Source of the DNA: Myxococcales bacterium
Lineage (GTDB): Bacteria; Desulfobacterota; Binatia; HRBIN30
Direction: 5' to 3'
DNA length: 64,000 nt
Assembly: GCA_037445065.1 (NCBI GenBank)
Contig: JBBILD010000006.1
Span: forward strand, 137,187 to 201,186
Below the pieces are notes generated by a model, which was not told the origin of the DNA, ran no database searches, and saw only the letters and a program-made list of their open reading frames with translations. Within the stretch, counting starts at the first letter, position 1; each line of letters opens with the position of its first letter. Positions 12,059 through 54,799 of this stretch are shown piece after piece. The position numbers and the translations under genes were made by a program.

Positions 12059-12432
12059 GCCAACCCCTCCCTCCCATGGCCGAACGCGGGCCGGTCGTGC
12101 AGCGGCGCGGCCGGCCCGCTGTTTTCTAGCCCGAGGCGTTCCGGAGGGCAGGTTGGTGCTTGGCTACTCGAGCCCGTGGCTCGCAATGCATGGCTCGTAC
12201 GAAAGAAGGGCCACTCGAGTGCGCTGGCCCTTTGCGTCGCGCCCATGCCGGGCAGACCATCCAATGAGGCTGATGACTGTGGCTCGCCGTGGCGGGAGCG
12301 CGGGCGATCGGAGACGGGGCTACCACTGGACAACGAAGTGGCGCGGGAGAGCGAAAAAGCCGTTCGCATTCGCTTGCTGAGTACGCTAGGTTTCGGGCAC
12401 TTTTTCACTCTATACGAGGAGTTGGACTGGTT

Positions 12433-14307
12433 ATGGCAACCGCGAAGACATCACGTTCGGTGCAGCGGACCGCGGCGCAGAAGTATCGGCCGGAAGCCCA
12501 CGAAGTAGCGCCCCACCCCAGGGCAGGCGTGGAGATGACCAATGCGGATGCGATTGTGCAGGTACTCGCCGACGAGGGTGTGGATACGGTTTTCGGCTAT
12601 AGTGGTGGCGCCATTTTGCCCACGTACGACGCGATCTTTCGTTACAACGAGGCCAACAAGGATCGCGAGATCCGACTCATCGTTCCGGCGACCGAGCAAG
12701 GTGCCGGTTTCATGGCGGCGGGCTATGCCCGCTCGAGCGGCCGGGTTGGAGTGTTTATCGTGACCTCCGGTCCTGGTGCCACGAATTCAGTGACGCCGAT
12801 CCGCGACTGCCAGGCTGACTCGGTGCCGGTGGTGCTGATCACGGGACAAGTGCCGCGTGTGGCCATGGGTACGGATGCGTTTCAAGAAGCACCTGTGTTC
12901 AACATCATGGCCGCCTGCGCCAAGCACGTGTTTCTCGTCACGGACGAAACAAAAGTCGAAGAAACGATCCGTACTGCCTTCCGCATTGCCCTGAGTGGGC
13001 GTCCGGGTCCGGTGGTAGTGGATATACCGCGCGATGTGCAACTGGCGAAGACCAGCTACCGCGGCCACGGGCGGTTGCGCTTACGTGGCTACGATGAACG
13101 GCTCGCTGCTCTCGAGCGTTCGACCCTGTCGCCGCGGGATGCCGAGGAGTTTTTCCGTTTGCTCGGCAATGCCGAGCGGCCCTTGCTGTACGTGGGTGGT
13201 GGGATCATCCACTCGAATGCGGCACCTGAGCTGCGCGCTTTTGTGGAGCGCTTCGGAATCCCGGTCGTCACCACCCTCATGGGTATCGGCGCCTATGACA
13301 CCAGCGCCGAGCTGTCGTTACGCATGCTGGGCATGCACGGCACTGCGTACGCGAATTATGCAGTGGAAGACTGCGATTTCTTGTTCGCCGTTGGTTCCCG
13401 CTTCGATGATCGTGTGGCGGGGAAGGTCAAGGAGTTCGCGCCCCACGCCAAAATCGCACATCTGGACATTGACGCTTCGGAAATCGGCAAAGTGAAAGCG
13501 GTGGATTGGGCGCATGTGGCCGACGCCAAACGCGGCTTGCAGCAACTATTGGAAGCCGGGCGGGACTTTAAAAAGGATTTCTCTCGCTGGCGAGCCTACA
13601 TCCTCGAACTCAAACGCAAGTATCCTCTCAATTGGAACCGAGAATCTCCCCTCATCCAGGCGGAGTACGTCCTTTCCACGCTGAACGAGCTCACCCGCGG
13701 CGAAGCGATCGTGACCACCGGTGTGGGCCAGCACCAGATGTGGGCGGCCCAGTACTTGGATTTTCACCGCCCCCGTACTTGGTTGACCTCTGGCAGCATG
13801 GGCACGATGGGATTCGGCCTGCCGGCAGCGGTGGGTGCACAGCTTGCAAATCCGGGTGCACTGGTGATCGATGTGGACGGCGACGGCAGCTTACGGATGA
13901 ACCTGGGTGAATTGGAAACCCTGACCACGTACGACATCCCGGTCAAAGTGCTGCTGCTGAACAACCTGGGCGATGGCATGGTGCGGCAGTGGCAGGACTT
14001 GTTTTACGCCAATCGGTACTCTGGCTCGGACAAGAGCTTGCACAAGAAGGACTTCGTTAAAGCTGCCGAGGCGGATGGCTTCGCCTTTGCCCGGCGCATT
14101 ACGCAGATTCCTGAGGTGCGCCCGGCACTGGAGGAGTTCATTCGTTTTCCAGGACCAGCGCTGCTCGAGGTCATGATCGACCAAAAGGCCCATGTGTACC
14201 CGATGGTCGGCCCCGGAATGGGATACAAGGACATGATTACCGGGAAATTCATCCCGAGCCGGGACAAAGGGCCGAAGACGACCGAGACACCGCCGGGTTA
14301 CTTTTGA
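12433..14307 (+). CDS. thiamine-diphosphate enzyme, acetolactate synthase large-subunit family
   Basis: Motifs VFGYSGGAILP, GFMAAGYARSSGRVGVFIVTSGPGATN, and the TPP-binding GDG...NN signature at the C-terminus. GAGGAG RBS precedes ATG 12433. Confidence 0.85.
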   Translation: MATAKTSRSVQRTAAQKYRPEAHEVAPHPRAGVEMTNADAIVQVLADEGVDTVFGYSGGAILPTYDAIFRYNEANKDREIRLIVPATEQGAGFMAAGYARSSGRVGVFIVTSGPGATNSVTPIRDCQADSVPVVLITGQVPRVAMGTDAFQEAPVFNIMAACAKHVFLVTDETKVEETIRTAFRIALSGRPGPVVVDIPRDVQLAKTSYRGHGRLRLRGYDERLAALERSTLSPRDAEEFFRLLGNAERPLLYVGGGIIHSNAAPELRAFVERFGIPVVTTLMGIGAYDTSAELSLRMLGMHGTAYANYAVEDCDFLFAVGSRFDDRVAGKVKEFAPHAKIAHLDIDASEIGKVKAVDWAHVADAKRGLQQLLEAGRDFKKDFSRWRAYILELKRKYPLNWNRESPLIQAEYVLSTLNELTRGEAIVTTGVGQHQMWAAQYLDFHRPRTWLTSGSMGTMGFGLPAAVGAQLANPGALVIDVDGDGSLRMNLGELETLTTYDIPVKVLLLNNLGDGMVRQWQDLFYANRYSGSDKSLHKKDFVKAAEADGFAFARRITQIPEVRPALEEFIRFPGPALLEVMIDQKAHVYPMVGPGMGYKDMITGKFIPSRDKGPKTTETPPGYF

Positions 14308-15695
14308 TCGCCGGTTGGGTTCCGCCGCTGCGCGGCGAGCCGGGCCAGCATTGTCGCGTGCACCTGTCGGGTAAGGGGGTATCTCTGCCCAGCGAGGATC
14401 GCGCACAGCAAGAACGTCGCGGGCGCGAGGCTCGTGAGCCATAAGATCACGTGGTCTACCTCGCGATCATTGGGTGCACCGGGCTGAAACCCCACAAGCT
14501 CGAGTACGCCGAAAACGATGGCGACTCCGAGTGCGCCGCCAAGCTTCCGCACGAAGGTAAAGAGCCCGTGGAACAGGCCCTCCCGGCGCTCCCCACTGCG
14601 CAGCTCTTCCTCGTCAATCACTTCTCCGAGCATGGACCACGGCATGACGTCTGCCGCCGCGTAGCCAACCCCGGCGATCGCCATGAGACAGAACATCAAC
14701 CACACTGGGGCGTCGCGTTCGACCAAGAGTAGGCTCAGTTGCACGATCAACCAAACGGTAGCTCCCGCCGCAAAAAGCGGCATCTTGTCGGTGTTGCGCG
14801 AGACTCTGAGCCAAGCGGGAAAGGCGACGACGACCGACGCCAGAAACAGCAGCATGCCGATCTCGAAGTGGCGGGACCGCCCCAGCCAGTGAGTGAAAAA
14901 CAAGATCAGTAAGGTGCTGACGGTGTCGATCGCCATGCGGCTGAAAAGAAACACCAACACCAGTTGCCGGAAGCTTGCGAGTGCGAAGGCGCTGCGCAGC
15001 CCCTTGAGAAGGCTGGTTTCATAACTCACCCGGTGCAGCTCGGGCCGCTCGAAGCTGACTTTGTAGACCGCAAACCAAGGGACTGCGAAGGCGGCCCCGA
15101 ACAAACAGGCAGCGGAGAGAAAGCCCGCCGAGCCTCCGCCAAAATACTCGGCCAGCGGGCGCAGGGCGATGGCTGCGAAAACACCGAGGATGGCTCCGGC
15201 CGCACGGAAGGTGTTGAGCGAGGTGCGGTCGTCATACGTGACCGCCATTTCTGGCTGTAACGCGAGGTAGGGAATGCTGAGCACGGTCATTGCGGTAGTC
15301 AGCAAGGAGTACATGCCGGCGTAGTAGGCGAAACGGGCCGCCTGCGATTCGAATCCTGGTTCGAGCCACAGCAGGGCAAAGCTGATCGCAAACGGCAGGG
15401 AGCCGATGAGAAAGTAGGGACGCCGGCGCCCGAGGCGCCAGCGCGTTCGGTCGGAAATGCGGCCCATGAGCGGATCGGTGATGGCATCAACGGTGCGCCC
15501 GACCAGGGGCACCAGTCCGGCCAGCGAGGGTCGCAGGCCAGCGACGTGCATGAGAAAGTAACCGGTAAAGACAAAGCTCAGCGCGTTGAGGGCAGCATTG
15601 ATCGTGAAGTCCCCGCTGGCATAGACCGCTCGTCGCCAGGCAGTCAGCACGGGCACCGGCTCGGGCCGAGAGCGATGCGCGGCGGGTTGCAGCAT
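14298..15695 (-). CDS. MFS transporter, GPH (glycoside-pentoside-hexuronide:cation symporter) family
   Basis: MFS_2 motif GRISDRTRWRLGRRRPYFLIG and 12 predicted TM segments. ATG at 15695 overlaps the stop of the upstream gene (TAATG). Confidence 0.8.
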   Translation of the reverse strand: MLQPAAHRSRPEPVPVLTAWRRAVYASGDFTINAALNALSFVFTGYFLMHVAGLRPSLAGLVPLVGRTVDAITDPLMGRISDRTRWRLGRRRPYFLIGSLPFAISFALLWLEPGFESQAARFAYYAGMYSLLTTAMTVLSIPYLALQPEMAVTYDDRTSLNTFRAAGAILGVFAAIALRPLAEYFGGGSAGFLSAACLFGAAFAVPWFAVYKVSFERPELHRVSYETSLLKGLRSAFALASFRQLVLVFLFSRMAIDTVSTLLILFFTHWLGRSRHFEIGMLLFLASVVVAFPAWLRVSRNTDKMPLFAAGATVWLIVQLSLLLVERDAPVWLMFCLMAIAGVGYAAADVMPWSMLGEVIDEEELRSGERREGLFHGLFTFVRKLGGALGVAIVFGVLELVGFQPGAPNDREVDHVILWLTSLAPATFLLCAILAGQRYPLTRQVHATMLARLAAQRRNPTGDQK

Positions 15696-18600
15696 TATCC
15701 GGCTAAGGGAGAGGCCGACTGCTCCGCCCAGCGGGCAAGGAACCTGAGGCCGAGGTTCTGCGCCGCCTGGCTGAGTTCGCTGGCAGAGAAGCCGGTTCGA
15801 TCGAAGTCGGCGCCAGCAACGGAACACAACAGGCGGGCGATGCTCGCGTGTAAGCTGCTCAGTTGTCCCCCCGCCCGGTGGCTCGTGATCTCTGTAAACT
15901 CCACCGCTTGCGTCGTGTCCCCGCTGCCTAAGAGCGCAGCGGTGATCACATGGCTGCCGAGAGAGAGGTTGTCGCTACCGCTCAAGAGCTGGGCGACATG
16001 GCTGCGGAGCATCGTAAGGGGGGATTGGGTCCCGAGTTTGCGCGCGGCCAGCACGGCGTAAGCGGCGTCGCGCAGCGAGCCCGCACTCGAGTCGAGGCCT
16101 GGTGCCATGTCCAAGGCCTGCTGGCACAGTTCCAACGCCGCTGCAAAGTCCCCCTCCTCGAACGCGATATGCCCTCGCAAACCCACCATCGCACTCGACA
16201 CTTTCCGATTTCCGGCACGCTGGGCGATCGCCTCCGTGGCGTGGCACTCCTCCCGCGCGGCAGCAAACCGCTCGGCAAAGAAAAGCACATGAGCGCGCAG
16301 CCAGCGTGTACCACAGTATAGGTCGGTGGCGGGATCGCGCTGGCCAGCCTCTTCGAGGAAACGGAGGGCTTGGTCCAGCGCCTGCAGGGATGCCGCGAAT
16401 CTTCCATCTCGCAAGCGCATGTACGCGGCGGCGCGAGCTGCGTCGCAAACTGTATTCACCTCGAGGTGGTCTTTCTGTTGGAGAGCTTCCGCAAAAACGC
16501 CTTCCACGCGTTCCAGTGCAGCAGCGAAGTCTTCCCGATAGCCCAGTCCGAGGGCCAGTCCATCGTAGATCGCCAGCACCGCCGCGGCGCTCGGCTCGCC
16601 CCACTGCCGTGCGATCTCAGTTGCCCGCGCGAAGATTTGGCGGTGGTCCCCGCCCGCCGCGCCGTAAATCACGTGCATGCGGGCTAGGCCTCTGACCGCC
16701 TGCAACGCAAGCCGGGCTGGCTGCTCGTTCGCCGCATGGGGCGCGGTCATTTCCCACGCCTTGCGATACAGGTCCGCAGCGACCTGGTACGAGGGTTCCT
16801 CCTCCGCGGCCTGGGCGGCACGCAGCAGGGAGCGAGCGGCGCGCGCGGGGTTGTCCGTGTGTGACGCGTGGTGGAGGAGTAGGGCGAGAGAGGAACGGTC
16901 CAGACCTTCCTGTTCTTCGAGCAACTGACTGGCTCGTTCGTGCAAGGCTTTTCGTTCTTTGAGGAGCAGTGTCGAGTACGCCACTTCTTGGGTGAGGCTC
17001 TCGCCGAAGCGGTATTCGTCGGCAGAGAAGACAAAGCGGCGGTGCAACACACCCCGCCGCTCGAGTTCCGCCAACTGCCGGTCCACCTCGATTCCCTCCT
17101 CGGTGAGCAGGCGGGCGAGCATACCGTGCGAGAACTCCCGGCCGAGAACCGACGCCACTTGTAGGGTGCGCTTGGCGGCGGGCGGTAAGCGGTCGATGCG
17201 CGCCACGATGACCTCTTGCACCGTGCTCGGCAAAGGCAACGCAGAGGCCAAAGCGGGCAGCACACCGCCTCCCTCGGCACTGTTTTCGAGGACGGAACGG
17301 GTAAGCTCTTCGGCAAGGAAGGGGTTGCCCTCTGCCTTTTGTAAGATTTGCTCGACTGCTTCTGTAGAAAGGCGCTCGCCGCCGATGCTGCGTACAATTG
17401 TACTCACGGCTTCGCGGCTCAAAGGGCCAAGCGGTACCAGGGTTTGCACGGCTGGGCTTTGCGGCGTGAACAGGAAATCGGGGCGGTGGCTGAGCCAGAA
17501 CAGCACGGGGCCCGAAGCTGCTTGCAGCGCTGCTTGCAACATTTCGAGAGAAGGGGGGTCGATCCAATGGAGGTCTTCGACAACCAAGACCACCGGGTGG
17601 CGGCGCAACTCAGCGCGCACGAGCTGCGAAACAGCCCCGAATGTGCCGAGTTTTCGTTTGCGCTCACTCAGCGGCTCCGGGAAAGACACCGGCAGCCCAA
17701 GAACCAGCTCGAGCCATGGCGTCTCAAGGAGCAGCGCCGGATCAAGTTCCTCGGCCTTCTGTTTCAGGCGGGCGCGCAAGGCCGGAGCCGGGGTGTCGGG
17801 TCCCGCCTCCAGATAGCGGCGCAACATTTTCGCCCACGGCACATAGGGAAGAAGTTGGGTAAATGGCGAGCCACGGGTCTCGAACCAGGCCAAATCGCGC
17901 TCGGCTAAGCGCTGGCGCAATTCGAACAGCAAGCGCGACTTGCCGCTGCCCGGCCCGCCGCTGACAACTATCAGTTGGGGTACGCCCCGATCGAGCGCGG
18001 CAAAGCAGGCGAGGAGTTGATCGAGATGTGCCTCGCGGCCAACAAATGGCGTCAAGCCGTAGCCAGCGTCCAGCTCGTGGATCTCCGACCCGGAGCGAGG
18101 CGAAGAGAGGGCTCCCAGCACCTCGTATGCTTCAACTGGCTCGCTTTTCCCCTTCGCCGGAAGCGCCCCAGCCGGGCGGCAGGAGAACACCCTCCGCACT
18201 GCACGGTAGGTGGCGGCACTGATGAGGATCGCACCCGGAGGGGCCAGCGATTCCAGTCGAGCTGCTGTGTGCGTTGTGTCGCCGATGGCACTGTAGTCCG
18301 CCTTCAATTCATTGCCCACGGCACCGACAACCGCAGGTCCAGAGTGTATGCCGATCCGAGCCTGCAATCGAATGCCGCGGCGAGCCCGCAACTCGCGATC
18401 GAGGCGGCCGAGCGCCGTTTGGATCTCGAGGGCGGCAAGCACCGCCCGCTGGGCATCGTTTTCGTGTGCAAGCGGAGCACCGAACAAGGCCATGAAGCCG
18501 TCCCCGGCAAGCTGGTTCACCATCCCTTCGAAGTGGTGCACGGCACGAATGGCGATTTCCAAATATTGGTCGAGAAGTTCGCGGAAATCCTCTGGATCGA

Positions 18601-18958
18601 GGCGTTCGGCTAAAGCTGTGGAGCCGACCAGATCACAGAACATCACGGTTACTTGCTTGCGCTCGGCGCGGGCAAAGTTGGGTGCAACTGGGCTCGAATT
18701 CGACGCCGCAGCGCCCCAAGGGGGATCGATCGGCGAGCTGGTAGCGGCGGCGTCGCTGCGCGCGGCCTCGGAAATTTGCTCTGCGGCCGGTGCAGGGGGA
18801 GATGCCTCGGAGATGGGCGAGCCGCAATCCGCGCAGAAGCGGTCCCCCGGCTCTGCCTCCGCTCCGCATCGTCCGCAGCGCAGTCCAAAAGAAGTCCCAC
18901 ACTGGGTGCAGAACGGCTTTTGCCGCCGCCGCGGCGCACCGCAGGAGGGACAGTTCAT
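15695..18958 (-). CDS. multidomain signalling protein: double zinc-ribbon, class III adenylate/guanylate cyclase, AAA/STAND ATPase, TPR-like C-terminus
   Basis: N-terminal CPSCG...CTQCG...CGRCG...CADCG. Cyclase domain VTVMFCDLVGST...LAGDGFMALFGAP. P-loop VSGGPGSGKS. Long helical repeat C-terminus. Confidence 0.9.
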   Translation of the reverse strand: MNCPSCGAPRRRQKPFCTQCGTSFGLRCGRCGAEAEPGDRFCADCGSPISEASPPAPAAEQISEAARSDAAATSSPIDPPWGAAASNSSPVAPNFARAERKQVTVMFCDLVGSTALAERLDPEDFRELLDQYLEIAIRAVHHFEGMVNQLAGDGFMALFGAPLAHENDAQRAVLAALEIQTALGRLDRELRARRGIRLQARIGIHSGPAVVGAVGNELKADYSAIGDTTHTAARLESLAPPGAILISAATYRAVRRVFSCRPAGALPAKGKSEPVEAYEVLGALSSPRSGSEIHELDAGYGLTPFVGREAHLDQLLACFAALDRGVPQLIVVSGGPGSGKSRLLFELRQRLAERDLAWFETRGSPFTQLLPYVPWAKMLRRYLEAGPDTPAPALRARLKQKAEELDPALLLETPWLELVLGLPVSFPEPLSERKRKLGTFGAVSQLVRAELRRHPVVLVVEDLHWIDPPSLEMLQAALQAASGPVLFWLSHRPDFLFTPQSPAVQTLVPLGPLSREAVSTIVRSIGGERLSTEAVEQILQKAEGNPFLAEELTRSVLENSAEGGGVLPALASALPLPSTVQEVIVARIDRLPPAAKRTLQVASVLGREFSHGMLARLLTEEGIEVDRQLAELERRGVLHRRFVFSADEYRFGESLTQEVAYSTLLLKERKALHERASQLLEEQEGLDRSSLALLLHHASHTDNPARAARSLLRAAQAAEEEPSYQVAADLYRKAWEMTAPHAANEQPARLALQAVRGLARMHVIYGAAGGDHRQIFARATEIARQWGEPSAAAVLAIYDGLALGLGYREDFAAALERVEGVFAEALQQKDHLEVNTVCDAARAAAYMRLRDGRFAASLQALDQALRFLEEAGQRDPATDLYCGTRWLRAHVLFFAERFAAAREECHATEAIAQRAGNRKVSSAMVGLRGHIAFEEGDFAAALELCQQALDMAPGLDSSAGSLRDAAYAVLAARKLGTQSPLTMLRSHVAQLLSGSDNLSLGSHVITAALLGSGDTTQAVEFTEITSHRAGGQLSSLHASIARLLCSVAGADFDRTGFSASELSQAAQNLGLRFLARWAEQSASPLAG

Positions 18959-18961
18959 CGC

Positions 18962-19942
18962 TCAGCTATCTCCAACGAGGCGCCCGGTGGGATCAAGCTG
19001 CCCTGCGAGTTTTTTGGCAGTCTCGCGTTCCATAAAATCAACGATTTGCCGTTCCAGATGCAGTCCGCTCGCGGCGTTGATCTGCCGCACCGCAGAAGGG
19101 CTGGTGATATTGACCTCGGTGAGGTAGCCGCCGATTACGTCCAGCCCGGCCAGCGCGAGCCCCTCGCTGCGCAAAAAGGCACCGACCACACGTACGATTT
19201 CTTGTTCTCGCGCTGTCAGCCGGGTCGGCTCGACCCTCGCCCCCTGGTGGATGTTGGCGAGGCGGTCTAGCGCCGCCGGAATGCGGTTCACCGCCCCGAT
19301 CGCTTCCCCGTCGAGAAGGAAGATGCGCTTGTCCCCGTGGCAAACTTCGGCCAAGTACGCTTGCACGACGATGGGCTCCGGCGCGTAGCGCTCAAGCATC
19401 TCTGCGAGCGCGGCCTCGAACCCCTTACGGTCGGTGATGCGGATCCCCCGGCCACTGCACTCGCTGAGTGGCTTGAGCACGACCCGCTCGAACGACTGTG
19501 CAAACGCAAGCAGGTCGCGCGCATGCCGGCTCACGCAGGTGGGCGGGCAGAAGCGAGGGAAAAGCAGCGGAAGAAGCTTTTCGCTCCACAACAGTACGCT
19601 GCTTGGACGATTGATCACAAGCGGGCGTCTGGCCATGGCCAGGGTTTGGGCAGCAAAGCGGTAGCCCTCATCCACCGGGGGGTCTTGCCGCATGAGGATC
19701 AGGTCGAACCACTCGAGTTCTCCCTCGTATTCGCTGCTGCCAGGAACAATGGGGCGGCCGTCCGGTTCGACCGACAAGCGCCGGGCGTGGGTCAGGGCGG
19801 CGCTGCTCGTTAGCGAGAGTTCGCGCGGGAGCGCCATCCAAACTTCGTGACCCCGCCGCTCGAGTTCCTCGACCAGCAACAGCGAGGTTTCGGTTTGGAG
19901 GTTGAGTCGCTCGAGCGGATCGAGCACCACGAGCACGCGCAT
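18962..19942 (-). CDS. gshB: glutathione synthetase (ATP-grasp)
   Basis: DLILMRQDPP, VLKPLSECSGRGI, GDKRIFLLDGE and GLDVIGGYLTEVNITSP align with prokaryotic GshB. Start at M67 (MRVLVVLDP) of the tracked ORF. Confidence 0.85.
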   Translation of the reverse strand: MRVLVVLDPLERLNLQTETSLLLVEELERRGHEVWMALPRELSLTSSAALTHARRLSVEPDGRPIVPGSSEYEGELEWFDLILMRQDPPVDEGYRFAAQTLAMARRPLVINRPSSVLLWSEKLLPLLFPRFCPPTCVSRHARDLLAFAQSFERVVLKPLSECSGRGIRITDRKGFEAALAEMLERYAPEPIVVQAYLAEVCHGDKRIFLLDGEAIGAVNRIPAALDRLANIHQGARVEPTRLTAREQEIVRVVGAFLRSEGLALAGLDVIGGYLTEVNITSPSAVRQINAASGLHLERQIVDFMERETAKKLAGQLDPTGRLVGDS

Positions 19943-20154
19943 GTCCCGCACCCTAACACGCCTGCGCGCCTCCGCTACTGCGGGGGTCGTTCCCGCCCTC
20001 GGCTCGCCGAACTTGCTTGAGCACAAGGATTCAGTGCGGTAGTTTGCTGCCTCGTGTGCGTGATCTGGTTTTGTAAAACCAGCAACGAGTCGGCGGCGTT
20101 GGAGAGGCTCGCTCGAGGGGGCAACTCGCGCCGGAAGCAAGGGGGGCCGACACC

Positions 20155-20559
20155 ATGAAGCTGAGAGGGAAGGAGTTGGCCTTCATCCGTTCGCAAAGGG
20201 TGGCACGCCTAGCTACGGTCGGACCCGGAGGAGAGCCCCATAACGTTCCCGTATGTGTGGTGGCGGTGGGCGGGAATTTGTACTTTGCCTCCGAGGCGAA
20301 GGCGCGAAAGGTGAAAAACCTCGCGGCCAACCCGCGCGCGGCTCTGGTGTTCGACGTGTATGAGGAGGACTGGAACCGGCTGGCGGGAGTGATGGTGGTT
20401 GGCCGAGCAGCGATTCTGGAAAAGGGAACCACCTTCCACCGCATCCGCCTTGCGCTGTACCGGAAGTACCGGCAGTACAAGAAATTTGCGCCCATCGAAG
20501 AGGGAGAGTCGGTAATCGTGGCGATTACTCCGGAGACCTCGTTCTCATGGGGGCTCTAG
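20155..20559 (+). CDS. pyridoxamine 5'-phosphate oxidase family protein (F420/FMN-binding split barrel)
   Basis: ARLATVGPGGEPHNVPV...LYFAS...KV.NLAANPRAALVFD matches the PPOX-class split barrel. Confidence 0.7.
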   Translation: MKLRGKELAFIRSQRVARLATVGPGGEPHNVPVCVVAVGGNLYFASEAKARKVKNLAANPRAALVFDVYEEDWNRLAGVMVVGRAAILEKGTTFHRIRLALYRKYRQYKKFAPIEEGESVIVAITPETSFSWGL

Positions 20560-20584
20560 GGAAAACGACAGTTGGGAGGACGGT

Positions 20585-22666
20585 ATGCGAGAGTGGTCCC
20601 GCCTAGGAGCGGGCGTCGGCTTGGTCTTGTTTTTGTTGGTGGGGACGCAGCTCGAAGCACAAGTTTGTACCGGGGACTGCTCGGCGGACAACGAAGTCAC
20701 CATTGATGAGATCATCCTTGCGGTCAACATTGCTTTGGGATCGGCGGCTTCCTCCGCCTGCACTGCAGCGGATCAAAACGGCGACGGAGAAGTCACCATC
20801 GACGAGATCATCCAGGCGGTGAACAACGCCTTGAATGGCTGCACTCAGAGCACCCAGGACCCGTGGTTCTTCCAAAACCCGGCTCCCTCCGGCGAAGACT
20901 TGTTCGCCGTCAGCTTTCCCGACGCGCAGCACGGCTTTGCGGTGGGCAGCTTTTCCGAAGTCGTGCGCACGCGCGATGGTGGCCAGACGTGGGAGTCGGT
21001 GGCCGTCAATGACTTCTGGAACTTTTTTGCGGTCCGCTTCCTCGACGCGCAGCGGGGTTGGGTGGTCGGTGAGGCAGGGACCATGTACTTCACTGCCGAC
21101 GGCGGAGACACGTGGAGTTCTCGTACCAGCGGAACGCAGCAAGACTTGAACGGGCTCGTCTTCCTTGATCCGGCGCGCGGCTTCGCGGTGGGCAGCGGAG
21201 GCGTGCTCCTGCGCACGTCGGATGGTGGCGACACCTGGAATTCCACGGTGCTCAATGCCAGCCGGGATCTCTTTGCCATCAACTTTGCGGGACCGCAGCG
21301 CGGTTGGATCGTCGGCACGATGGGGAGCATTTGGCATTCAAGCGATAGCGGTGCGAGTTGGCAGACCCAGGCAAGCAATACTGGGGTGACTCTGTACTCC
21401 GTGGCCTTTGCCAACGAGCAGCTTGGCTTGGTGGTGGGAGACAGCGGAACGATTTTACGCACCGAGGATGGGGGCGCCCGCTGGATCCCATCGGTTGCCC
21501 CTGAGATCGTCCCGCTGTACGGCGTGGCTTGGGCCGACGCGCAGACTGCATGGATCGTCGGTGACCTGGATGACTTTGGCGAAGCTGTCATTTTCAAGTC
21601 GACGGACGGCGGCCTCACTTGGACCCGACAAGACAGCCTCAACAATAACCCGCTGTACGGGCTGGCTGCCTTAGCGATCAACGGTGCTCGGGCCGTGGGT
21701 GGCGCGGGTACGTTGCTTGCCACTGATAACGGCGAGACTTGGTCGCTACGGAACCCGGCACCGACCAATGATCTCTACGGCGTGGCTTTCCCACCCGGCG
21801 AGCCAAACGTGGGATACGCGGTCGGCGATTTCGGAGCCATCGCGGTGACGAGCGATGGAGGAGAGACATGGCTCTCGCGGGATGCCGGGACGACCGCCGG
21901 CCTGTTCGCGGTGACTTCGATTGACCCCCAACTGGCCTGGGTTGCCGGCCAGGAGGGCTTGATTCTTTACACCCGCGACGGCGGCAGTACGTGGCTTCCG
22001 CAGAGTTCCGGAACCACCGCTTCGTTGTTCGGTATCCAGTTCGTGACCGGTACGCAGGGGTGGGCGGTCGGCGAGAGCGGAACGATTCGCGTAACCACGG
22101 ACGGCGGTGGCACTTGGCGCGGGCAAAGCAGCGGCACCACACAGGACTTGTTTGGCGTTCGCTTCGTGGACGTGTCTACCGGGTGGGTCGTCGGGGATAA
22201 CGGCACGATCCTGCGCACCACCAACGGTGGTGCGACCTGGCAGCGGCAAGCCAGCGGTACGACTGAGCCACTCTTTGCCGTGGCTTGCGTGGACGCATCG
22301 ACTTGCTGGGTCGTCGGTGGTAGCGGGCAGACCGATACCACCCCTCCGGTTCAGGTCCTGCTTAAAACCACCGACGGAGGACAAAGCTGGACGCAGCAAA
22401 ATGTCTTTTGCGGCAGCAACCCTTCAGTTCCAGACAGTTCCGCTTGCCCAGACCCGCTTTTCGCCATTGTGGCGTTCGATCGGCAGACGGCTTGGGCGGT
22501 TGGGGATTTTGGTTTGATCTTGGCCACACGGGACGGGCAGCGGTGGGAGCCGCAAGCGAGCCCCACGGATGACCTACTGAATGCTCTCGCGTTCCCCACC
22601 CGGCAGGTGGGTTACATTGTTGCAACCCGCGGCACCATCTTGAAAACAGAGACGGGAGGTTTTTGA
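20585..22666 (+). CDS. secreted BNR/Ycf48-like repeat protein (two beta-propellers) with N-terminal dockerin-like double repeat
   Basis: Signal peptide. GDCSADNEVTIDEIILAVNIAL...DQNGDGEVTIDEIIQAVNNAL. About 13 SxDxGxTW-type repeats follow (DGGQTWESV, DGGDTWSS, DSGASWQTQ, ...). Confidence 0.85.
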   Translation: MREWSRLGAGVGLVLFLLVGTQLEAQVCTGDCSADNEVTIDEIILAVNIALGSAASSACTAADQNGDGEVTIDEIIQAVNNALNGCTQSTQDPWFFQNPAPSGEDLFAVSFPDAQHGFAVGSFSEVVRTRDGGQTWESVAVNDFWNFFAVRFLDAQRGWVVGEAGTMYFTADGGDTWSSRTSGTQQDLNGLVFLDPARGFAVGSGGVLLRTSDGGDTWNSTVLNASRDLFAINFAGPQRGWIVGTMGSIWHSSDSGASWQTQASNTGVTLYSVAFANEQLGLVVGDSGTILRTEDGGARWIPSVAPEIVPLYGVAWADAQTAWIVGDLDDFGEAVIFKSTDGGLTWTRQDSLNNNPLYGLAALAINGARAVGGAGTLLATDNGETWSLRNPAPTNDLYGVAFPPGEPNVGYAVGDFGAIAVTSDGGETWLSRDAGTTAGLFAVTSIDPQLAWVAGQEGLILYTRDGGSTWLPQSSGTTASLFGIQFVTGTQGWAVGESGTIRVTTDGGGTWRGQSSGTTQDLFGVRFVDVSTGWVVGDNGTILRTTNGGATWQRQASGTTEPLFAVACVDASTCWVVGGSGQTDTTPPVQVLLKTTDGGQSWTQQNVFCGSNPSVPDSSACPDPLFAIVAFDRQTAWAVGDFGLILATRDGQRWEPQASPTDDLLNALAFPTRQVGYIVATRGTILKTETGGF

Positions 22667-34124: not shown

Positions 34125-34471
34125 GGGGGCGATCTGGTTTCGACGGAGGTGAGAAGGTACGTGGTTGCGTGCCCGGGAGCCTGGGTACCGGTGAACAACC
34201 CCAGGGCTGCATAAACGCAGACGAACCGCTTGCTCTGGCTGCCTAAAGCGCAGTCACGTCTCCCCGACTCGAGCCCGTAGGGTCGGGTGAGGCGTCGCAA
34301 ATCGGGCTAAGCGGTGGTGGCTGCTCGGACACCACCGACGAAAACGTACGAGCTGGCACTTGGATTCCCCGCCCGTGGGGCCGCCAAGTGCGAGAATCAA
34401 ACGCGTGGCTACGCACGTAGAGACCACGGCTGACTGCCTCCGGACGGGGGTTCGATTCCCCCCGCCTCCAC
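34125..34471 (+). ncRNA. ssrA: tmRNA (ssrA)
   Basis: 5' GGGGGCGATCTGGTTTCGACGG. Tag reading frame ...GCAGACGAACCGCTTGCTCTGGCTGCCTAA (..ADEPLALAA*). 3' T-arm/acceptor GGACGGGGGTTCGATTCCCCCCGCCTCCAC. CCA is not encoded. Confidence 0.85.
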
Positions 34472-34480
34472 TTTCTTCAC

Positions 34481-48323: not shown

Positions 48324-49682
48324 TCAGAGGACCAGTTTGTACGCGAGACCGAACGCGCCGCTCAGCGCAATAACTGGGATCACGCCGGCTTGCTGGCGAA
48401 AGAGCAAGTAGGTGGCGCCAAGGGCAATGCATGCTGAGGGCCAGTCGAAACGGCCGCTGAATCCATGTGGCCAAAGCACGTGGTAAGTCAGGAACAATGC
48501 CAAATACACGATCACCCCGGTTACCGCCGCAGTAACTGCCTGTAGCGGCGCCGTGAGCGTCAGATTGCCGCGCGTGGATTCGACCATAGGGCCACCCGCG
48601 AGAATGAACAGAAAAGAGGGCAGAAAGGTAAACCACGTGGCCACTAGGGCGGCGAGTGCCCCTCCTGCAAAGGTGTACTCCGGGCCGAGGAGTGCCTGCC
48701 GGTAGCCGGCTACGAAGGCGACGAAGGCCACCACCATGATCAGTGGACCTGGAGTCGTTTCGCCGAGCGCTAAGCCGTCAATCATCTCTCCAGGAGTAAG
48801 CCAGCCGTAATGGTTCACAGCGGCTTGGTACACATAGGGAAGCACCGCGTACGCGCCCCCGAAGGTGAGCAAGGCGACCTTGGTAAAGAACCAAGTCATC
48901 TGCGTGAACATGCCACGCCAGCCGTCCGTTGCGGCCAGCCACGCCATTGGCACCACCCAAAGCAACGCACCGGCCACCAGCACTCGGGCAAAGCTGCGCG
49001 CGCGAAAGCGGGTGTGTTCTGGTGGGGGCGTGTCCTCGTCGATCAGCGCGGGAGTAAATTGCGAGACGGCCCCATTTGTTTTTCCCAGCAATCGCTCAGG
49101 AGCCAAGCGCCAGGCCAAGTAGCCGACCACCGCCGCGCCGGTCAAAATCGCCGGGAACGGCACCTGGAGGGCGGAGATGGCCACGAAGGAGGCGGCCGAA
49201 ATTGCCCAAAGCAAATGGCTGCGAAGCGTACGCGTGCCAATGCGGTAAGCGGCGTGCGCGACGATCGCGGTGACCGCCGGTTTGAACCCGTAAAAGAGCC
49301 CGGCCACAGCGGGCTGGTTGCCGAACGCAACATAGAGCCACGCTAGTAGGGTCAGGAGGATCAGCGACGGCAGGACGAACAGGGCTCCAGCAGCAATTCC
49401 GCCCCACGTGCGATGCAGTAACCAGCCAATGTAGGTGGCAAGCTGCTGGGCTTCCGGCCCGGGAAGCAGCATGCAGTAGTTCAGAGCGTGCAGAAAGCGA
49501 GGTTCGCTGATCCAACGCCTCCGCTCGACGAGTTCGGCGTGCATGATCGCGATTTGGCCGGCTGGACCACCAAAGCTCACGAAACCAAGTTGGAGCCAGA
49601 ACCGAAGCGCCTCCCGAAAGCTCACAGTCGCTGGTCGCGAGGTTGGTCCCTGGGAAGGGGGTTCCGTCGTCTGCGCTGTCAC
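48324..49682 (-). CDS. chrA: chromate ion transporter (CHR family)
   Basis: Duplicated ChrA halves with FGGPAGQIAIMH and LLTFGGAYAVLPY motifs. Confidence 0.85.
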   Translation of the reverse strand: MTAQTTEPPSQGPTSRPATVSFREALRFWLQLGFVSFGGPAGQIAIMHAELVERRRWISEPRFLHALNYCMLLPGPEAQQLATYIGWLLHRTWGGIAAGALFVLPSLILLTLLAWLYVAFGNQPAVAGLFYGFKPAVTAIVAHAAYRIGTRTLRSHLLWAISAASFVAISALQVPFPAILTGAAVVGYLAWRLAPERLLGKTNGAVSQFTPALIDEDTPPPEHTRFRARSFARVLVAGALLWVVPMAWLAATDGWRGMFTQMTWFFTKVALLTFGGAYAVLPYVYQAAVNHYGWLTPGEMIDGLALGETTPGPLIMVVAFVAFVAGYRQALLGPEYTFAGGALAALVATWFTFLPSFLFILAGGPMVESTRGNLTLTAPLQAVTAAVTGVIVYLALFLTYHVLWPHGFSGRFDWPSACIALGATYLLFRQQAGVIPVIALSGAFGLAYKLVL

Positions 49683-51136
49683 ACTAGGGCCCTTGCTCGA
49701 GGATCACCGTAGCTGTGCGCGCAGGTGCTTCCACTGCAGACAGGAACCGTTCCTGTTCCGAGGCAATCTTCCATCGTCGCTTGCAACTCCTGGTGCATTG
49801 CAGGTGAGCTGGGTGCGTCAGTTGCTGCGAAGGGACTCGGGGCTTCTGTTGTGGCCCTGGACAGTCGCCGTGCGGGCCAGCCTCCGCTGCCAGAAACTCG
49901 CTGCGGCTCCTGAGGCCACGAGTAAGAGCGGCCTTTTCTCCTCCGTTAGCCTATGTCGAGGGAGCGGTTCCCTGTTTGCCGGACCTCGTGCACGTCTCCC
50001 GTCAGCGCCTGGATCGGATGCAAACAGCTCTGCTCGTCGGAAGAGAACGCCCCACCGGGGCACGCCGATCACGTTCTTGTTCGGACCGCTCCGGCGTGTA
50101 GGCCCTGTTCGAGGGCCTACGGGACTGGTGCGGGAGCCGGTAGAGCCTCCACGTCTCCCCGCTCTTGTGCTCCTCCCAGTTGCGAAGCTGCGGACATTGT
50201 GCTGCCGACTTGCTCGGCCACTCCTGCAAGTCTGGAAGCGCCTCTTGCCCAGCCCGTCTGTCGGCGAGCCAGAGCCGCCCGCTCACGTAGACAGCGTTCG
50301 TTTTGCGCGGCAGGTCGTCCACGGCTTTGCACAAACGAGTGCATGCTCCAACGCTGCCTGCGTGCCGCGGGCAGCACCTGAGAGGCAGTCGCGCCGAATT
50401 CGGGTGGCGGTCGCCCCTCCGCAGCTCTACCCCGCGAAGCTCCCGATCCTTGCGGCGCAACCACACAGCCTGCCAGCTTGGCTCGCAGTGGCGGCGCACC
50501 CACCTTCGCCGCGACTGGCGGTTCCGTCGGCACACGTGCAAGCAGAAGAGCTGCCCTTACAACAATTGGCAGCCCCGGTAATTCAACGGAATCCGAACAC
50601 CCACAGCACGGGGCCACGTGCCGCTGCTTGCACAGCGGGCGCGGGTACGAGATGCCATCCAGGTTGTGTAGGGGCGACCCTTGTGGTTACCGGAGGTGCC
50701 GTTGGCAGTGCTGTTCGAACGTGCCCGCGGCGTTTATGCGACCACGCGTTGCTGGCAGCATGGTGTCCCTTCGCCGCACTCCCCTGCCCCCCGAGGCATG
50801 CTGTCACCACTACCACCAACAACGCTGAAATCGTTGCGCATGGCTCCCCGGGATTGGACCGCAGCGCCTACCCAGGAGCGCTTTCGGCGTGAGCGGCCGA
50901 GCGCACTCCTGGCGAGTGGGCAATGAGCTGGCCGATCGCCGGCGTTTGGGGACGCCGCTGGTGCGAGCACTTCGGTGCGGCCCAGGCTCGACCTCCGCGG
51001 CTTTGGTTCCGAAACTTCGTTGCTTGAGTTGCGTGCTAAGGGGTGTAGCGTGCCGAGTCAGGCGAGGAGGGTTGCGCATGCACCCAGCCGCCGCACGGCA
51101 AAGGTGGCCTAGTAGTCGCGGGGGGCGTACTCGCGC

Positions 51137-53030
51137 ATGCGCGTGGTTCCTCGCGGTCGTGTTCTTTTGGGCGAGCCCGGAGGCTCCATGGCTTTGGCAC
51201 TCGCTGCCTGCCCGCTCGACTGCAATGAAGACGGGCTCGTATCGGAGAGCGGGTTAGCCCTTGGACTCGCCAACGTCTCTCCCCGAGCAGTGTTTGGCTG
51301 TCCCATCGCTGGCCCGCAGTCGACTCCAACGCCGACGGCGACTACGGCGTCGAGGACCTCATCCGCGGCGCCACGGCTCGCCGTCTGCAGTGCGAAGATG
51401 TGGCATCACCGGCAGGCTGGCGCGGTGCGGTCATTGACGCATTGCAGGGACTCTATCTCATCGGTGCCCAACTCCGCGCCAACCGCTGACCTCCACCGGG
51501 CACGTTGGCGTCCGACCCCTCATGGGCGTGGCTTGGGCCGGATTCTGCCACGCCGAGCCCACGCCTCAGTTCCGGTTCGTCACCACAACCTCCAATCTGC
51601 CCTGGATGCGGCCTGGCTGGCCACCGCCGAATTGTGCCTTCGACCCGCCGGCGGCGGCTTATCTCGCGGACGTGCCGCCCACCCCTACCCTCACGCGCAC
51701 GCCTACCAGCAGCACACCTACCCCGGGCACGCGCACCCCCACTTGGATTGCCACGCCCACTCGGACGGCCACGGCCACTCCCACCGGTCCCACGCCCATA
51801 CGTACACCGGTTCTCTTATGCGACACTGTGGATTGCCGCGGGATCGCTCCGGACTGCTGCCCGTGCCCTGGAGATTCCTGTCCCATTGCCGATTGGCAGG
51901 TGGAACCAATACCGCAAGTGCAAGGAGTATTTCTGCGCGCTCGATCCGTTGAGCCCGGCGTGCTTGGGCGAGTGTGGGACTTGTCCACCGAATGCTCCGT
52001 GTCTCGGCGCTCCAGCGACTGCTTGTGCGACAGCCACCTACACGCGTACGCCGGCGTGCAGCCCACGCGCACCGCCAGTCCCACTCGCACGCCCACCGGA
52101 CCGACCCGTACTCCCACCGCGGCGCCACCCCCGGCGCGCATCCCCGGACTCGCTGTGCCGATCCTCGACGTATCCGGGAGCAACGGCGAGCGTGTGACCG
52201 TCGAGGCGTACTTAGTGGGCAGCGGCGGCAAGGTTGGCGGTTTGGAATTCGACTTGCTGCTGCTGCAGGCGGCTGTAGCGCCAGTGGCTGTGTCGGAACA
52301 ATCGGCGGACAGCGTCCTGCAAGCAGCCTTTCTCTCCACCCACCGCTTGCCTCTAGTCGCGCCCCCGATCACCCGCTCGCTGGATTCGACCGGGTGCCGG
52401 TGCTGGTGGCGGACCGCAACGTGACCGACCGACTGCGCGACGAAACGCAGATGTTGAGCGACGGTGTGGTGGTGACCTGCACTCTGACCATCCTCACCAA
52501 CGCGCCTAGGGGCGGCCACCCGTTGCGCGTGGATCGGGCGCGAGCAGGCGATGAGCGCGGCACTTCCCTGTGGCCCTTCCGGGGCAGGCGACGCTGTGGG
52601 TGGGGGGCTGTTCGGGGAGCTGCTGCTCAAAGGAGGCGCCACCATGAGGCCGATGTTGTTCGGCACATACAGAACAACCGAACCCGCACCGCCTGCCTGG
52701 CTTGCAGCGCTGCTCGCGGCAGCCGTTGTTCAGGCTCGTGGGGCCTGGGGCCAGTTCGTACTCGAGGAAAGGTGGGACTTCCGGTACCCAGGCCCAGGCT
52801 ATGTCATCGAGCGCACGGCCTGGTATGCGGTCTACCCGGTCAAAACCAGAGATGCCATTGGTCCGCCTGGAGGCAGTGCGATGATTTCCGTTGCAGTGCG
52901 CCCGACATTGCGCTGTTGCGACTCAGAGCCGCAAGCGTTCTGGGAGGGGTGGTTTTCTCTCCGCTTCGCGGGTCTCGAGGGCTTGGGTTCCCCGTTGCAG
53001 CGCAGCTTTATCCGGCGCGGCCTGCGGTGA
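51137..53030 (+). pseudogene. multiply frameshifted locus encoding dockerin-like, PT-linker, Cys-rich and cohesin-like segments (scaffoldin-like remnant)
   Basis: Frame 2 reads CPLDCNEDGLVSESGLALGLANV (dockerin-like). Frame 0 reads PTPTLTRTPTSSTPTPGTRTPT... and later PTRTASPTRTPTGPTRTPT...VPILDVSGSNGERVTVEAYLVGSGGKVGGLEFDL (cohesin-like). Another frame reads CALDPLSPACLGECGTCPPNAPC. No single frame is open across the region. Confidence 0.3.
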
Positions 53031-53226
53031 GCCGTGCTGCCCGATTCTTTGCAAGTCGTCCCGGACCGAGGGTCTGGATGGCGTCTTCTCCCTCCCCGTT
53101 GGGGTGGGTTTCGGTTCATTCCGGCCAAGGTTCCGGATATCCAGGTCCGGGAATGGCTCAGGGGGCTGAGAGCCCCTGGTCGCCCTGAGTCAGCGCCATG
53201 CGAGAGGATCGTGGTTTGGTTTTACG

Positions 53227-53706
53227 TTGGGCTTCAACTGTTGCTTGAAGGCGAGTCGGGCCCATTCGCAACGGACCCGATTCCGATTCACGAGTGGCCC
53301 GAGGGGGCCCTCGGGCCTGCCGTTTTTCGCGCCTGAGGATTCGGCGGTGTGCTGTGGCTTCTTTGTGCCTGCTACTGCCCGCCCAGGGACGTACCCGGCA
53401 GAGTGCGCGGGCAACGAAGAAGGGATCCTGCTGCCGCCGGAGTGTGGCGGCTGCCAACGGGGCGCTTTGCACGTGGTGCCGTGCGTGGCCGACTGCAACC
53501 GCGACGGGCAGGTGACCGTGGAGGAACTGGTGCGCGCGGTGGGCGTGGTGGTGGGCAGGGAGCGTTACGAAGGCTGCGCTGCTGCCGATGGCAACGAAGA
53601 CGGGGCGGTCGCCTTGGATGAGGTGGTGCGTGGCGTGCGCAACGTGCTGACGAGCTGCCTGCAGACCTGGATGGAAGCGCACAACGCCCCTCTAGAGGTG
53701 CCGTGA
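53227..53706 (+). CDS. Cys-rich protein fragment with C-terminal dockerin-like double repeat
   Basis: CVADCNRDGQVTVEELVRAVGVVVG...ADGNEDGAVALDEVVRGVRNVL. No signal peptide at the tracked TTG start, so this may be the 3' part of the decayed upstream gene. Confidence 0.4.
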   Translation: MGFNCCLKASRAHSQRTRFRFTSGPRGPSGLPFFAPEDSAVCCGFFVPATARPGTYPAECAGNEEGILLPPECGGCQRGALHVVPCVADCNRDGQVTVEELVRAVGVVVGRERYEGCAAADGNEDGAVALDEVVRGVRNVLTSCLQTWMEAHNAPLEVP

Positions 53707-54182
53707 TGAGGTTCTCGGCTCGGCTCTCGAGCGTGCTGATCGCTGTCTTGCTTGCACCGCCCACGGTGCGGTTTGCCGCTGCCATTGACTCCACTGGGGT
53801 GCTCAAAGCGACCATTCATCCTGCGGCGGCTCGCGCCGGGGGTGAGGGCGACCTGCTGTTTTCGCTTGCCTCTCCCGACGAATCCTGGGAAGGCAAGCGG
53901 CTGCGGGGACTGCTGAACTGGCCTCGTGCTGGCGGCAGAGAGCCCAGCCACCCGTGGTGGTGGGTGCGCAAGGCAGAAAACGGCGTGCCCGACGGCGAGC
54001 CCTGGGACGCTGCTGCCTTTACCGAGTTCGAGGTTCGGTTCCACCCGCCAGGTTGTAGGGAGGGGGTGAATCGCTTCGCGATGACCTTGCGCGGCGAAGT
54101 GCACCGCGCGCCGGAACCTCCCATCGTGCGCTGCCGCATCGCGGTGGCGCCAACCCGTTCTCCAGGCGAGTACGTGCACTAA
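53703..54182 (+). CDS. small secreted protein, unknown function
   Basis: Signal peptide MMRFSARLSSVLIAVLLAPPTVRFAAA. Start overlaps the upstream stop. Trp-rich segment PSHPWWWVRKAENG. Confidence 0.45.
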   Translation: MMRFSARLSSVLIAVLLAPPTVRFAAAIDSTGVLKATIHPAAARAGGEGDLLFSLASPDESWEGKRLRGLLNWPRAGGREPSHPWWWVRKAENGVPDGEPWDAAAFTEFEVRFHPPGCREGVNRFAMTLRGEVHRAPEPPIVRCRIAVAPTRSPGEYVH

Positions 54183-54292
54183 ACGGGTTGCCCGTTCGGT
54201 GCTGCACTCTGCCGGGTGGGCTACCTCTGGCGCCAGTGGTTGGAGGAACCGTGCGTGCGGATCCCGGGGCGTTTCCCTCTGCGGGTGGAGCC

Positions 54293-54799
54293 ATGAAGCG
54301 CATGACCTGGCTAGCGCGCGCCAACCTATTGCGTGTGCTCCGCTTGTTCGCCGTCGTCTCCGCTACCACTGCTGTGCTCGCCTTCCTGGCCGCTGCCTTG
54401 CCTCCCCTCTCGGTTGCACTGCTGCCGACCTCGCTGGCCTTGCGCGGGAGCTTGGAGGAGGCCGTTGGCAACGAAGGGCAGACTGGGGCTCCGGACCGGC
54501 GGTTGCAGTGGAGCTTCGTTGGCCAGCGCCAAGGCCACGCGTTGCATGGTAAGTGGCTCATACTCGGCCATCCGAGTTGGAACAGTTTGGCAGTGGAAGC
54601 CGCCGTCCTTCCTGAGGTTGTCGAGGGCTTGCTCATGGGCGCGGGTGGCGAGGTGGTCGGGAAGTTGTCCGGCCGCTGGAGTACTTCGGGGGCAGAGGGC
54701 ACCTACGAGCTCTTGAGCGGCGAGGCGGGTAGCTGGAATTGGCCCTCGGCGGCGCCCGACACACCACCGACGGCCGAGAAAGAGCCCGCGCTGGCATGA
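54293..54799 (+). CDS. membrane-anchored/secreted hypothetical protein
   Basis: ATG 54293 preceded by GGGTGGAG. N-terminal hydrophobic anchor LLRVLRLFAVVSATTAVLAFLAAALPP. Confidence 0.4.
   Translation: MKRMTWLARANLLRVLRLFAVVSATTAVLAFLAAALPPLSVALLPTSLALRGSLEEAVGNEGQTGAPDRRLQWSFVGQRQGHALHGKWLILGHPSWNSLAVEAAVLPEVVEGLLMGAGGEVVGKLSGRWSTSGAEGTYELLSGEAGSWNWPSAAPDTPPTAEKEPALA

Follow-up and report, generated by a model that had tools for sequence, protein, structure and literature searches.

The 64,000-nucleotide stretch of contig JBBILD010000006.1 analyzed here (hereafter, the window) contains three consecutive minus-strand open reading frames (ORFs) that fill positions 14298-19942 and encode glutathione synthase (gshB), a 1087-aa protein with its class III nucleotidyl cyclase domain joined to a STAND ATPase module and TPR-like repeats, and an MFS_2 transporter. 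The original prediction had suggested that this tight arrangement might be a special three-gene unit that turns a thiol or metabolite signal into cyclic nucleoside monophosphate (cNMP) output. Our survey of gene neighborhoods did not bear this out. With a probability of roughly two in three, the arrangement is instead an inherited, lineage-specific synteny with probable co-transcription, in which the genes are neighbors by descent and neither an obligate unit nor a thiol-to-cNMP device. At best, the special coupling is a lineage-specific association of two genes, with the transporter an incidental neighbor.

The survey covered the loci of the closest homologs and 80 metagenome loci, the best-matching relatives kept from an alignment-query scan, and the neighbors in the window were compared with all loci by tblastn. 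A gshB gene lies directly upstream of the cyclase gene, on the same strand, in 8 of the 63 nonredundant loci with enough upstream sequence, and is absent in the other 55; only two of the 80 metagenome loci are linked in this way. In the eight linked loci the two genes are separated by 3, 34, 27, 27, 31, 28, 31, and 102 nt, and the cyclase keeps its zinc ribbon in all eight. Every one of these loci belongs to a single Binatia-type lineage, and synteny there extends over the whole surrounding block. The 97% relative (protein P0001; locus L001) has an arrangement identical to that of the window, and L005, with a cyclase 57-58% identical, has gshB, cyclase, and MFS genes between the same flanks. 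At 43-48% identity, gshB still lies directly upstream of the cyclase gene without an MFS gene (L008, L016, L017, and L018), and the downstream position is held by a DSBA-family gene, a different thiamine pyrophosphate (TPP) enzyme, or other genes. Homologs P0004, P0006, and P0007 (41-47% identity) have neither gshB nor MFS as a neighbor, and in locus L101 a 558-aa gene stands between gshB and the cyclase gene. Co-conservation of all three genes, as the prediction would have it, was thus confined to two sampled lineages: among the 49 loci with enough downstream sequence, an MFS gene follows the cyclase gene only in L001, which represents the lineage of the window, and in the 57-58% relative L005.

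Two close relatives are particularly informative. Locus L099 (from Binatia metagenome-assembled genome [MAG] GCA_026415395.1) and locus L100 (bacterium HR30) carry gshB and then the MFS gene with no cyclase between them, the gap measuring 231 or 572 nt, and no cyclase remnant was found in either gshB–MFS spacer. Both flanks are nevertheless those of the window, with PALP, radical SAM, PETase-like, IF-2B, beta-propeller, PNPOx, and gshB genes on one side and MFS, convergent ilvB, AurF-like, TetR, beta-lactamase, acetyltransferase, and AhpC genes on the other; their ilvB and MFS products are 91% and 62-64% identical to those of the window, respectively. The gshB-linked loci, where their sequence reaches far enough, likewise conserve the genes upstream, namely those for a radical-SAM protein, an IF-2B/MtnA-like protein, a BNR/Ycf48-like beta-propeller of ~700 aa, and a PNPOx protein. 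As these flanking genes are conserved alongside, the gshB–cyclase adjacency is, to judge from the loci compared, kept no better than the unrelated adjacencies beside it (IF-2B, beta-propeller, and PNPOx). The cyclase-free relatives, the count of 8 in 63, and the conserved flanks together argue that gshB and the cyclase gene are neighbors by descent and not an obligate functional unit.

A neighbor-joining tree, built without bootstrap and consulted solely on whether gshB-linked proteins group close to the window protein, shows these cyclases as a basal grade around it, with a few unlinked ones interleaved. Judged by the identities of their neighboring genes, L099 and L100 have a branching position between L005 and those linked loci that are more distant. 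The cyclase gene would hold an old, vertically inherited position behind gshB in one Binatia-type lineage. In the simplest history, the cyclase gene would have inserted behind gshB long ago, a sub-lineage would subsequently have acquired the MFS gene, and the HR30-type lineage would have lost the cyclase gene cleanly. Clustering of all neighboring ORFs across 86 loci yielded no recurrent partner gene other than this block. Several loci do have a second ORF of ~1,000-1,070 aa beside the cyclase gene (L061, L067, L085, L090, and L098; also L036, L040, L093, and L096), and these ORFs, which group together on clustering, may be tandem paralogs or another large signaling protein.

The features of the locus itself are as follows.

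19943-20154, no strand: divergent spacer of 212 nt between gshB (minus) and a PNPOx-like gene (plus), presumed promoter region (gene layout)
18962-19942, minus strand: gshB, glutathione synthase of the ATP-grasp type, 326 aa (GSH-S_N and GSH-S_ATP, NF003573)
18959-18964, minus strand: gshB stop codon TGA and the 3-nt spacer (gcg) ahead of the cyclase ATG (sequence read)
15695-18958, minus strand: double zinc ribbon (DZR)/class III cyclase/STAND NTPase/TPR protein, 1087 aa
14298-15695, minus strand: MFS_2 (GPH-superfamily) transporter, 465 aa (Pfam, NCBIfam, and PDB matches)

The gene calls, the junctions, and the domain architecture given in the original prediction all hold when the ORFs, junctions, and Pfam matches are read again. 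The gshB gene runs from its ATG at 19942 to a TGA at 18964-18962, the cyclase gene from its ATG at 18958 to a TAA at 15697-15695, and the last A of that stop codon is shared with the ATG of the MFS gene (15695-15693), giving TAATG. Upstream, the block is bounded by the PNPOx-like gene (plus strand, 20155-20559), which diverges from gshB, and downstream by a convergent gene for an acetolactate-synthase-type TPP enzyme (plus strand, ORF 12289-14307, probable start at 12433), the 3′ end of which overlaps that of the MFS gene by 10 nt. The block therefore consists of exactly three genes, with no room for internal promoters or terminators, and because there is no room between them the three genes are probably transcribed together from the spacer upstream of gshB, whose promoter role is itself presumed from the gene layout. 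A scan with the sigma-70 consensus gave no promoter-like match in the block, the gshB/PNPOx spacer included. The terminator scan gave 11 terminator-like matches, about twice the shuffle mean and all inside ORFs, and an Rfam search returned nothing in the three genes or the spacer. The sequence GGAG lies 11-14 nt ahead of the cyclase ATG, and no clear Shine–Dalgarno sequence was seen on reading the bases ahead of the MFS ATG. From their spacing, the cyclase and transporter genes may each be translationally coupled to the gene ahead.

The 3-nt junction is not shared more widely. In the relatives, the gshB–cyclase junction measures 27-102 nt, so the very tight spacing is specific to the lineage of the window. 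The relatives' spacers also share a motif, GGAG or GGGA followed by ACGACATA or ACATA, ~8-10 nt before the cyclase ATG (L008, 4939-4965; L016, 9830-9856; L017, 9970-10000; L018, 1590-1617; L020, 1612-1642). In the window this motif-bearing spacer has been lost, leaving the 3-nt gap. The motif may serve ribosome binding or regulation, or its presence may just reflect common descent.

The cyclase protein is made up of the following parts.

18821-18952, minus strand: double zinc ribbon, residues 3-46 (Pfam DZR, 31.6 bits against a cut-off of 27.3)
18128-18664, minus strand: class III cyclase homology domain, residues 99-277 (Guanylate_cyc PF00211, 82.3 bits against a cut-off of 21.9)
18269-18271, minus strand: codon 230, CAC (His), at the transition-state asparagine position (column counts over 120 homologs)
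16889-18049, minus strand: STAND nucleotide-binding oligomerization module, residues ~304-690 (AAA_16 at 304-486, 88.6 bits)
15698-16888, minus strand: C-terminal all-helical TPR-like repeats, residues ~691-1087, presumed sensor (AlphaFold2 model and fold matches)

The zinc ribbon consists of four CxxC motifs (C3/C6, C17/C20, C28/C31, and C42/C45), in which all eight cysteines are at least 90% conserved in an alignment of 79 sequences, and a disordered linker joins it to the cyclase domain. The STAND module carries Walker A (GGPGSGKS, 334-341), Walker B (VVEDLHWID, 459-467), SHRPD (490-494), and GxP (EGNPF, 543-547) motifs. Of these, Walker A, Walker B, and GxP do not vary among homologs; at single positions of the 79-sequence alignment, G337, G339, S341, and the E461-D462 pair are invariant and K340 is at least 90% conserved. 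A full-length AlphaFold2 model built on the 79 homologs has a mean predicted local distance difference test score (pLDDT) of 82.6, most positions beyond residue 300 exceeding 85, and shows the C-terminal region as an all-helical hairpin array at high pLDDT, where Pfam gives TPR matches that are all sub-threshold (residues 887-959). In Foldseek, the ATPase and repeat part matches the STAND-TPR protein 6mfv best (E = 1e-13) and, after it, Avs3, Apaf-1, CED-4, NOD2 and other NLRs, and the TPR domains of LGN/Pins; by sequence, the ATPase-TPR part found only designed TPR proteins in the PDB. Taken together, these 6mfv-type fold matches of the model and the invariance of the Walker and GxP motifs confirm the STAND-plus-TPR architecture. 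The absence of a helix-turn-helix (HTH) output, which the prediction had pointed out, is borne out as well: a Pfam scan at E ≤ 0.01 finds no HTH domain in the protein, its C-terminus is modeled as TPR-like helices, and the families listed for the best 120 homologs include no HTH. Over the cyclase domain the model is poor: pLDDT drops under 50 in several segments, and the first strand is covered by an implausible helix. Because of this low confidence the model was left out of the arguments on the catalytic site and the dimer.

Nor is the architecture itself unusual. A word-indexed search scored 8,000 candidates, of which 7,255 proteins match at E ≤ 1e-10. The best 120 of these, often from Candidatus Binatia MAGs, nearly all have DZR, Guanylate_cyc, and AAA_16 domains in 1,050-1,170 aa, and many are already labeled "class 3 adenylate cyclase/TPR repeat protein" or "AAA family ATPase." A single-protein query against genome contigs returned two distant Archangiaceae cyclase-domain matches alone. 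Fusions of a cyclase, an ATPase, and TPR repeats have been known in mycobacteria since the early 2000s (Rv0386, Rv1358, and Rv2488c, with a LuxR HTH), and the window protein is a further member of a very large, recognized family of stand-alone STAND-type class III cyclases. Some public gene calls for the family (P0002, P0005, and P0008) begin at a downstream ATG and hence omit the double zinc ribbon, while in-frame ATGs located 27-34 nt after gshB restore an N-terminus with the four CxxC motifs (L005, 8489; L008, 4966; L016, 9857).

The state of the enzyme was assessed by aligning the cyclase domain to CyaC (1wc0) and CyaB (3r5g), which phmmer matches in the PDB at E = 1.9e-25 and E = 1.2e-28, respectively, and by counting columns over 120 homologs. 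The key residues are D109, Q149, D153, R201, S223, H230, and R234. The metal-binding aspartate pair, whose absence had been set beforehand as grounds for giving up the prediction, is present: D109 and D153 align with the metal aspartates of CyaC and CyaB and are invariant in all 120 homologs, as are the phosphate-binding R201 and the transition-state R234. The substrate-specifying pair is Gln149 and Ser223 (family consensus Gln and Thr), which is neither the canonical ATP pair (Lys with Asp or Thr) nor the canonical GTP pair (Glu with Cys or Ser). Gln149, which occupies the position of the adenine-specifying lysine, is the usual residue in this family (108 of 120). The transition-state Asn-Arg pair is incomplete in the window protein, in which R234 is present and the asparagine position is His230. 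In 119 of 120 homologs this position is Asn, and His occurs only in the window protein and its 97% relative P0001. The CAC codon is identical in the independent NCBI assembly L001, and three Logan contigs encode an identical P0001 protein with His at position 230, so it is not a sequencing error. The conserved leucine beside His230 is also changed, to threonine (GDTTHTAARL; consensus, GDTTNLAARL).

Comparison with the 97% strain gives a ratio of nonsynonymous to synonymous substitution rates (dN/dS) of 0.30 for the whole cyclase gene and 0.14 for the cyclase domain, both from small counts (5 synonymous and 2 nonsynonymous differences in the domain), which indicates that the gene is maintained by purifying selection. 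Pseudogenization was considered and rejected, the ORF being intact in independent assemblies and dN/dS 0.14-0.30. We conclude that the protein is in all likelihood a functional cyclase producing cAMP, although its side-specificity is uncertain; a side-activity on GTP is possible because Gln replaces the adenine-specifying Lys.

By homology with STAND proteins and class III cyclases, the most likely mode of action would be driven by oligomerization. The C-terminal TPR-like region would bind a ligand or a protein and the P-loop module would carry ATP, and the two would jointly cause the protein to oligomerize. Class III cyclases need head-to-tail dimers, and oligomerization would bring the N-terminal cyclase domains into such dimers and thereby switch on cAMP synthesis.

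Two other views of the protein were weighed. The enzyme could be catalytically impaired or repurposed in this strain, acting mainly as a STAND scaffold or ATPase or cyclizing another nucleotide. Such a change would fit the restriction of His230 to this strain lineage among the 120 homologs, the neighboring Leu-to-Thr change, and the presence of Gln149 in place of the canonical Lys. However, glutamine is normal at this position in the family, and the adenylyl and guanylyl cyclase activities of Rv0386 are reported to depend on a Gln-Asn pair (bioRxiv 10.1101/2024.03.06.583649). In addition, the metal aspartate pair and both arginines are intact, the cyclase domain appears to be under purifying selection, albeit on small counts (5 synonymous vs. 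2 nonsynonymous), and Rv1900c is an active cyclase that also has His at the transition-state Asn position (PMC4886424), so that His230 does not exclude activity. A dead enzyme is unlikely given Rv1900c and purifying selection, and impairment or repurposing as a whole we consider quite improbable. Alternatively, the protein might combine a Pycsar-like cyclase with an Avs-like STAND sensor and raise a cyclic-nucleotide alarm on infection, and there are hints in this direction, as PADLOC PycC models match the cyclase domain with up to 69 bits and Avs3 is the second-best fold match of the STAND part. Yet the PycC matches do not extend beyond the generic cyclase fold and fall short of the Pfam Guanylate_cyc match, the other genes of the block that were tested have no meaningful PADLOC match, no effector with a cNMP-binding domain is adjacent here or recurrent in the 86 related loci, and the neighbors are housekeeping genes in conserved chromosomal synteny and not a defense island. 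A Pycsar/Avs anti-phage role, which we judge very remote, was rejected on genomic context.

Closer to the original prediction, gshB and the STAND cyclase could be a functional pair in which a thiol, glutathione, or redox cue is received through the zinc ribbon or a TPR pocket and converted to cAMP, so that co-expression with gshB would be selected for. Consistent with such a pair, the same-strand order with 3-102 nt between the genes is found in eight verified lineages and near-adjacency in a ninth, the eight zinc-ribbon cysteines are conserved, and in one relative a gene for a DSBA-family thiol-oxidoreductase directly follows the cyclase gene. Against it stand the 55 of 63 informative loci with no gshB neighbor, the two close relatives that keep gshB without the cyclase (L099 and L100), an adjacency no better conserved than the unrelated ones beside it, and the fact that the zinc ribbon and TPR region are common to most of the best 120 family members while no thiol-related partner recurs family-wide. 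On balance we regard the pair as unlikely, and its fuller form, a long-conserved gshB–cyclase operon of the Binatia-type lineage that converts a thiol or redox cue to cAMP and whose catalysis is tuned by the Asn-to-His change, as slightly less likely still. Inherited synteny, the reading we prefer, has its own weak points. The gshB–cyclase order and the short same-strand spacing survive down to ~39-47% cyclase identity and breakpoints fall just downstream of the cyclase gene, never between it and gshB; this persistence could reflect selection for co-expression, and contigs of equal length in two match lists hint at ~5 further linked gshB–cyclase pairs. Its prediction of co-transcription is drawn from gene spacing, the low confidence of the modeled cyclase domain leaves the dimerization step without structural support, and catalysis might be reduced or changed by His230 in place of the transition-state Asn.

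The two genes on either side of the cyclase gene can be described more briefly. The gshB product matches both Pfam PF02951 (GSH-S_N) and PF02955 (GSH-S_ATP), scores 293.3 bits against NCBIfam NF003573, above the cut-off of 272, and 272.6 bits against TIGR01380, below the cut-off of 299.05. Both NCBI and JGI annotate its relatives as glutathione synthase, dN/dS relative to the 97% strain comes to 0.19, and the gene is an ordinary housekeeping gene. For the transporter gene dN/dS is 0.17 in the same comparison, and its product matches Pfam MFS_2 over residues 25-443 with 271 bits. The prediction of a sugar:cation symporter was over-specific. MFSD2A, a Na-dependent lysophosphatidylcholine symporter, and MelB, the melibiose permease, are transporters of the same MFS_2/GPH superfamily, and the best solved relatives of the window protein are the MFSD2A lysolipid symporters (E ~1e-34 to 1e-35), with MelB at 1e-17. 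The window protein also falls just below the GPH subfamily cut-off of TIGR00792 (219.1 against 231.35 bits), and its matches suggest that the substrate may be lipid-like rather than a sugar.

Several observations concern the surroundings. The DSBA-family thiol-oxidoreductase-like gene mentioned above lies directly after the cyclase gene at 8398-9021 of L008 (cyclase P0005, "Acidoferrales," 43-46% identical) and is the sole other thiol-related neighbor seen. Divergent from gshB on the plus strand (20155-22666) lie the PNPOx-like gene and a gene for a 693-aa BNR/Asp-box (Ycf48/sortilin-like) beta-propeller, a pair conserved in most sampled relatives with enough upstream sequence; the beta-propeller protein matches PSII_BNR with 213 bits in a direct scan, and precomputed annotations list no Pfam family for it. 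On the other side, the product of the acetolactate-synthase large-subunit gene (12433-14307, plus strand) is 91-94% identical at the amino acid level to those of L005, L099, and L100, as compared with 56-84% for its neighbors, and falls in a 90%-identity cluster with proteins of "bacterium HR30" and Binatia MAGs, which marks the organism as a bacterium of the Binatia type. Scanning ~50 ORFs of the window revealed no second cyclase paralog, gshA, or cNMP-binding protein. The only RNA family found in the window is a transfer-messenger RNA gene (34125-34473, plus strand; Rfam RF00023, 165.8 bits), for which ARAGORN gives the tag peptide ADEPLALAA. A stretch of ~6 kb (49543-55780) holds six candidate ORFs (449, 271, 404, 159, 227, and 238 aa) with no Pfam match at E ≤ 1e-5.

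The value of these results is mostly corrective, in that a striking, apparently coupled three-gene arrangement is best read as inherited synteny around a member of an abundant family. That family, the STAND cyclases without an HTH, counts thousands of proteins in metagenomes of soil and sediment and is, to our knowledge, biochemically almost unstudied, the only studied relatives being the HTH-bearing mycobacterial proteins. The conserved gshB–cyclase pair offers a concrete and cheap hypothesis of a thiol or redox input, which, if true, would amount to an undescribed link between low-molecular-weight thiol metabolism and cyclic-nucleotide signaling. Furthermore, the naturally occurring Asn-to-His variant lends itself to probing how far catalysis needs the transition-state asparagine.

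Among known systems, the mycobacterial proteins Rv0386, Rv1358, and Rv2488c are closest in layout, having, like the window protein, an N-terminal class III cyclase, an AAA_16/MalT-type P-loop ATPase, and TPR repeats in ~1,085 aa. Unlike these Rv0386-type (class IIIc, LuxR-HTH) proteins, the window protein lacks the C-terminal LuxR-type HTH, has an extra N-terminal double zinc ribbon, and comes from a Binatia-type organism, a group in which its family appears widespread. Rv0386 also resembles it in having Gln for the substrate-specifying Lys (bioRxiv 10.1101/2024.03.06.583649), whereas the second substrate position is Ser or Thr in the window family and not Asn. With the STAND class at large (MalT, Apaf-1, NLRs, and Avs) the protein has Walker A, Walker B, and GxP motifs in common, and the PH0952-type STAND-TPR protein 6mfv, its best fold match over the ATPase and repeats (E = 1e-13, 763 aligned columns), differs in that the effector domain of the window protein is a nucleotidyl cyclase; sequence identity between the two is only ~12%. 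Residues 96-875 also align to positions 281-1053 (cyclase, ATPase, and repeats) of TIGR03903, the TOMM kinase/cyclase fusion, but the score of 251.5 bits is far below the cut-off of 705.75, the window protein lacks the N-terminal kinase domain, and the surroundings of its gene contain no TOMM biosynthesis genes. The cyclase domain of Rv1900c (LipJ) has His for the transition-state Asn, as in the window protein (PMC4886424), and its structure 1ybt is a PDB sequence match to the window cyclase (E = 4.5e-13), although the N-terminal domain of Rv1900c is an alpha/beta-hydrolase and the protein lacks a STAND module. Finally, the canonical adenylyl cyclases Spirulina CyaC (1wc0) and Pseudomonas CyaB (3r5g) are the best sequence matches among solved cyclases; their metal aspartate pair, phosphate arginine, and transition-state arginine align with those of the window protein, which has Gln149 and His230 where CyaC and CyaB have Lys and Asn.

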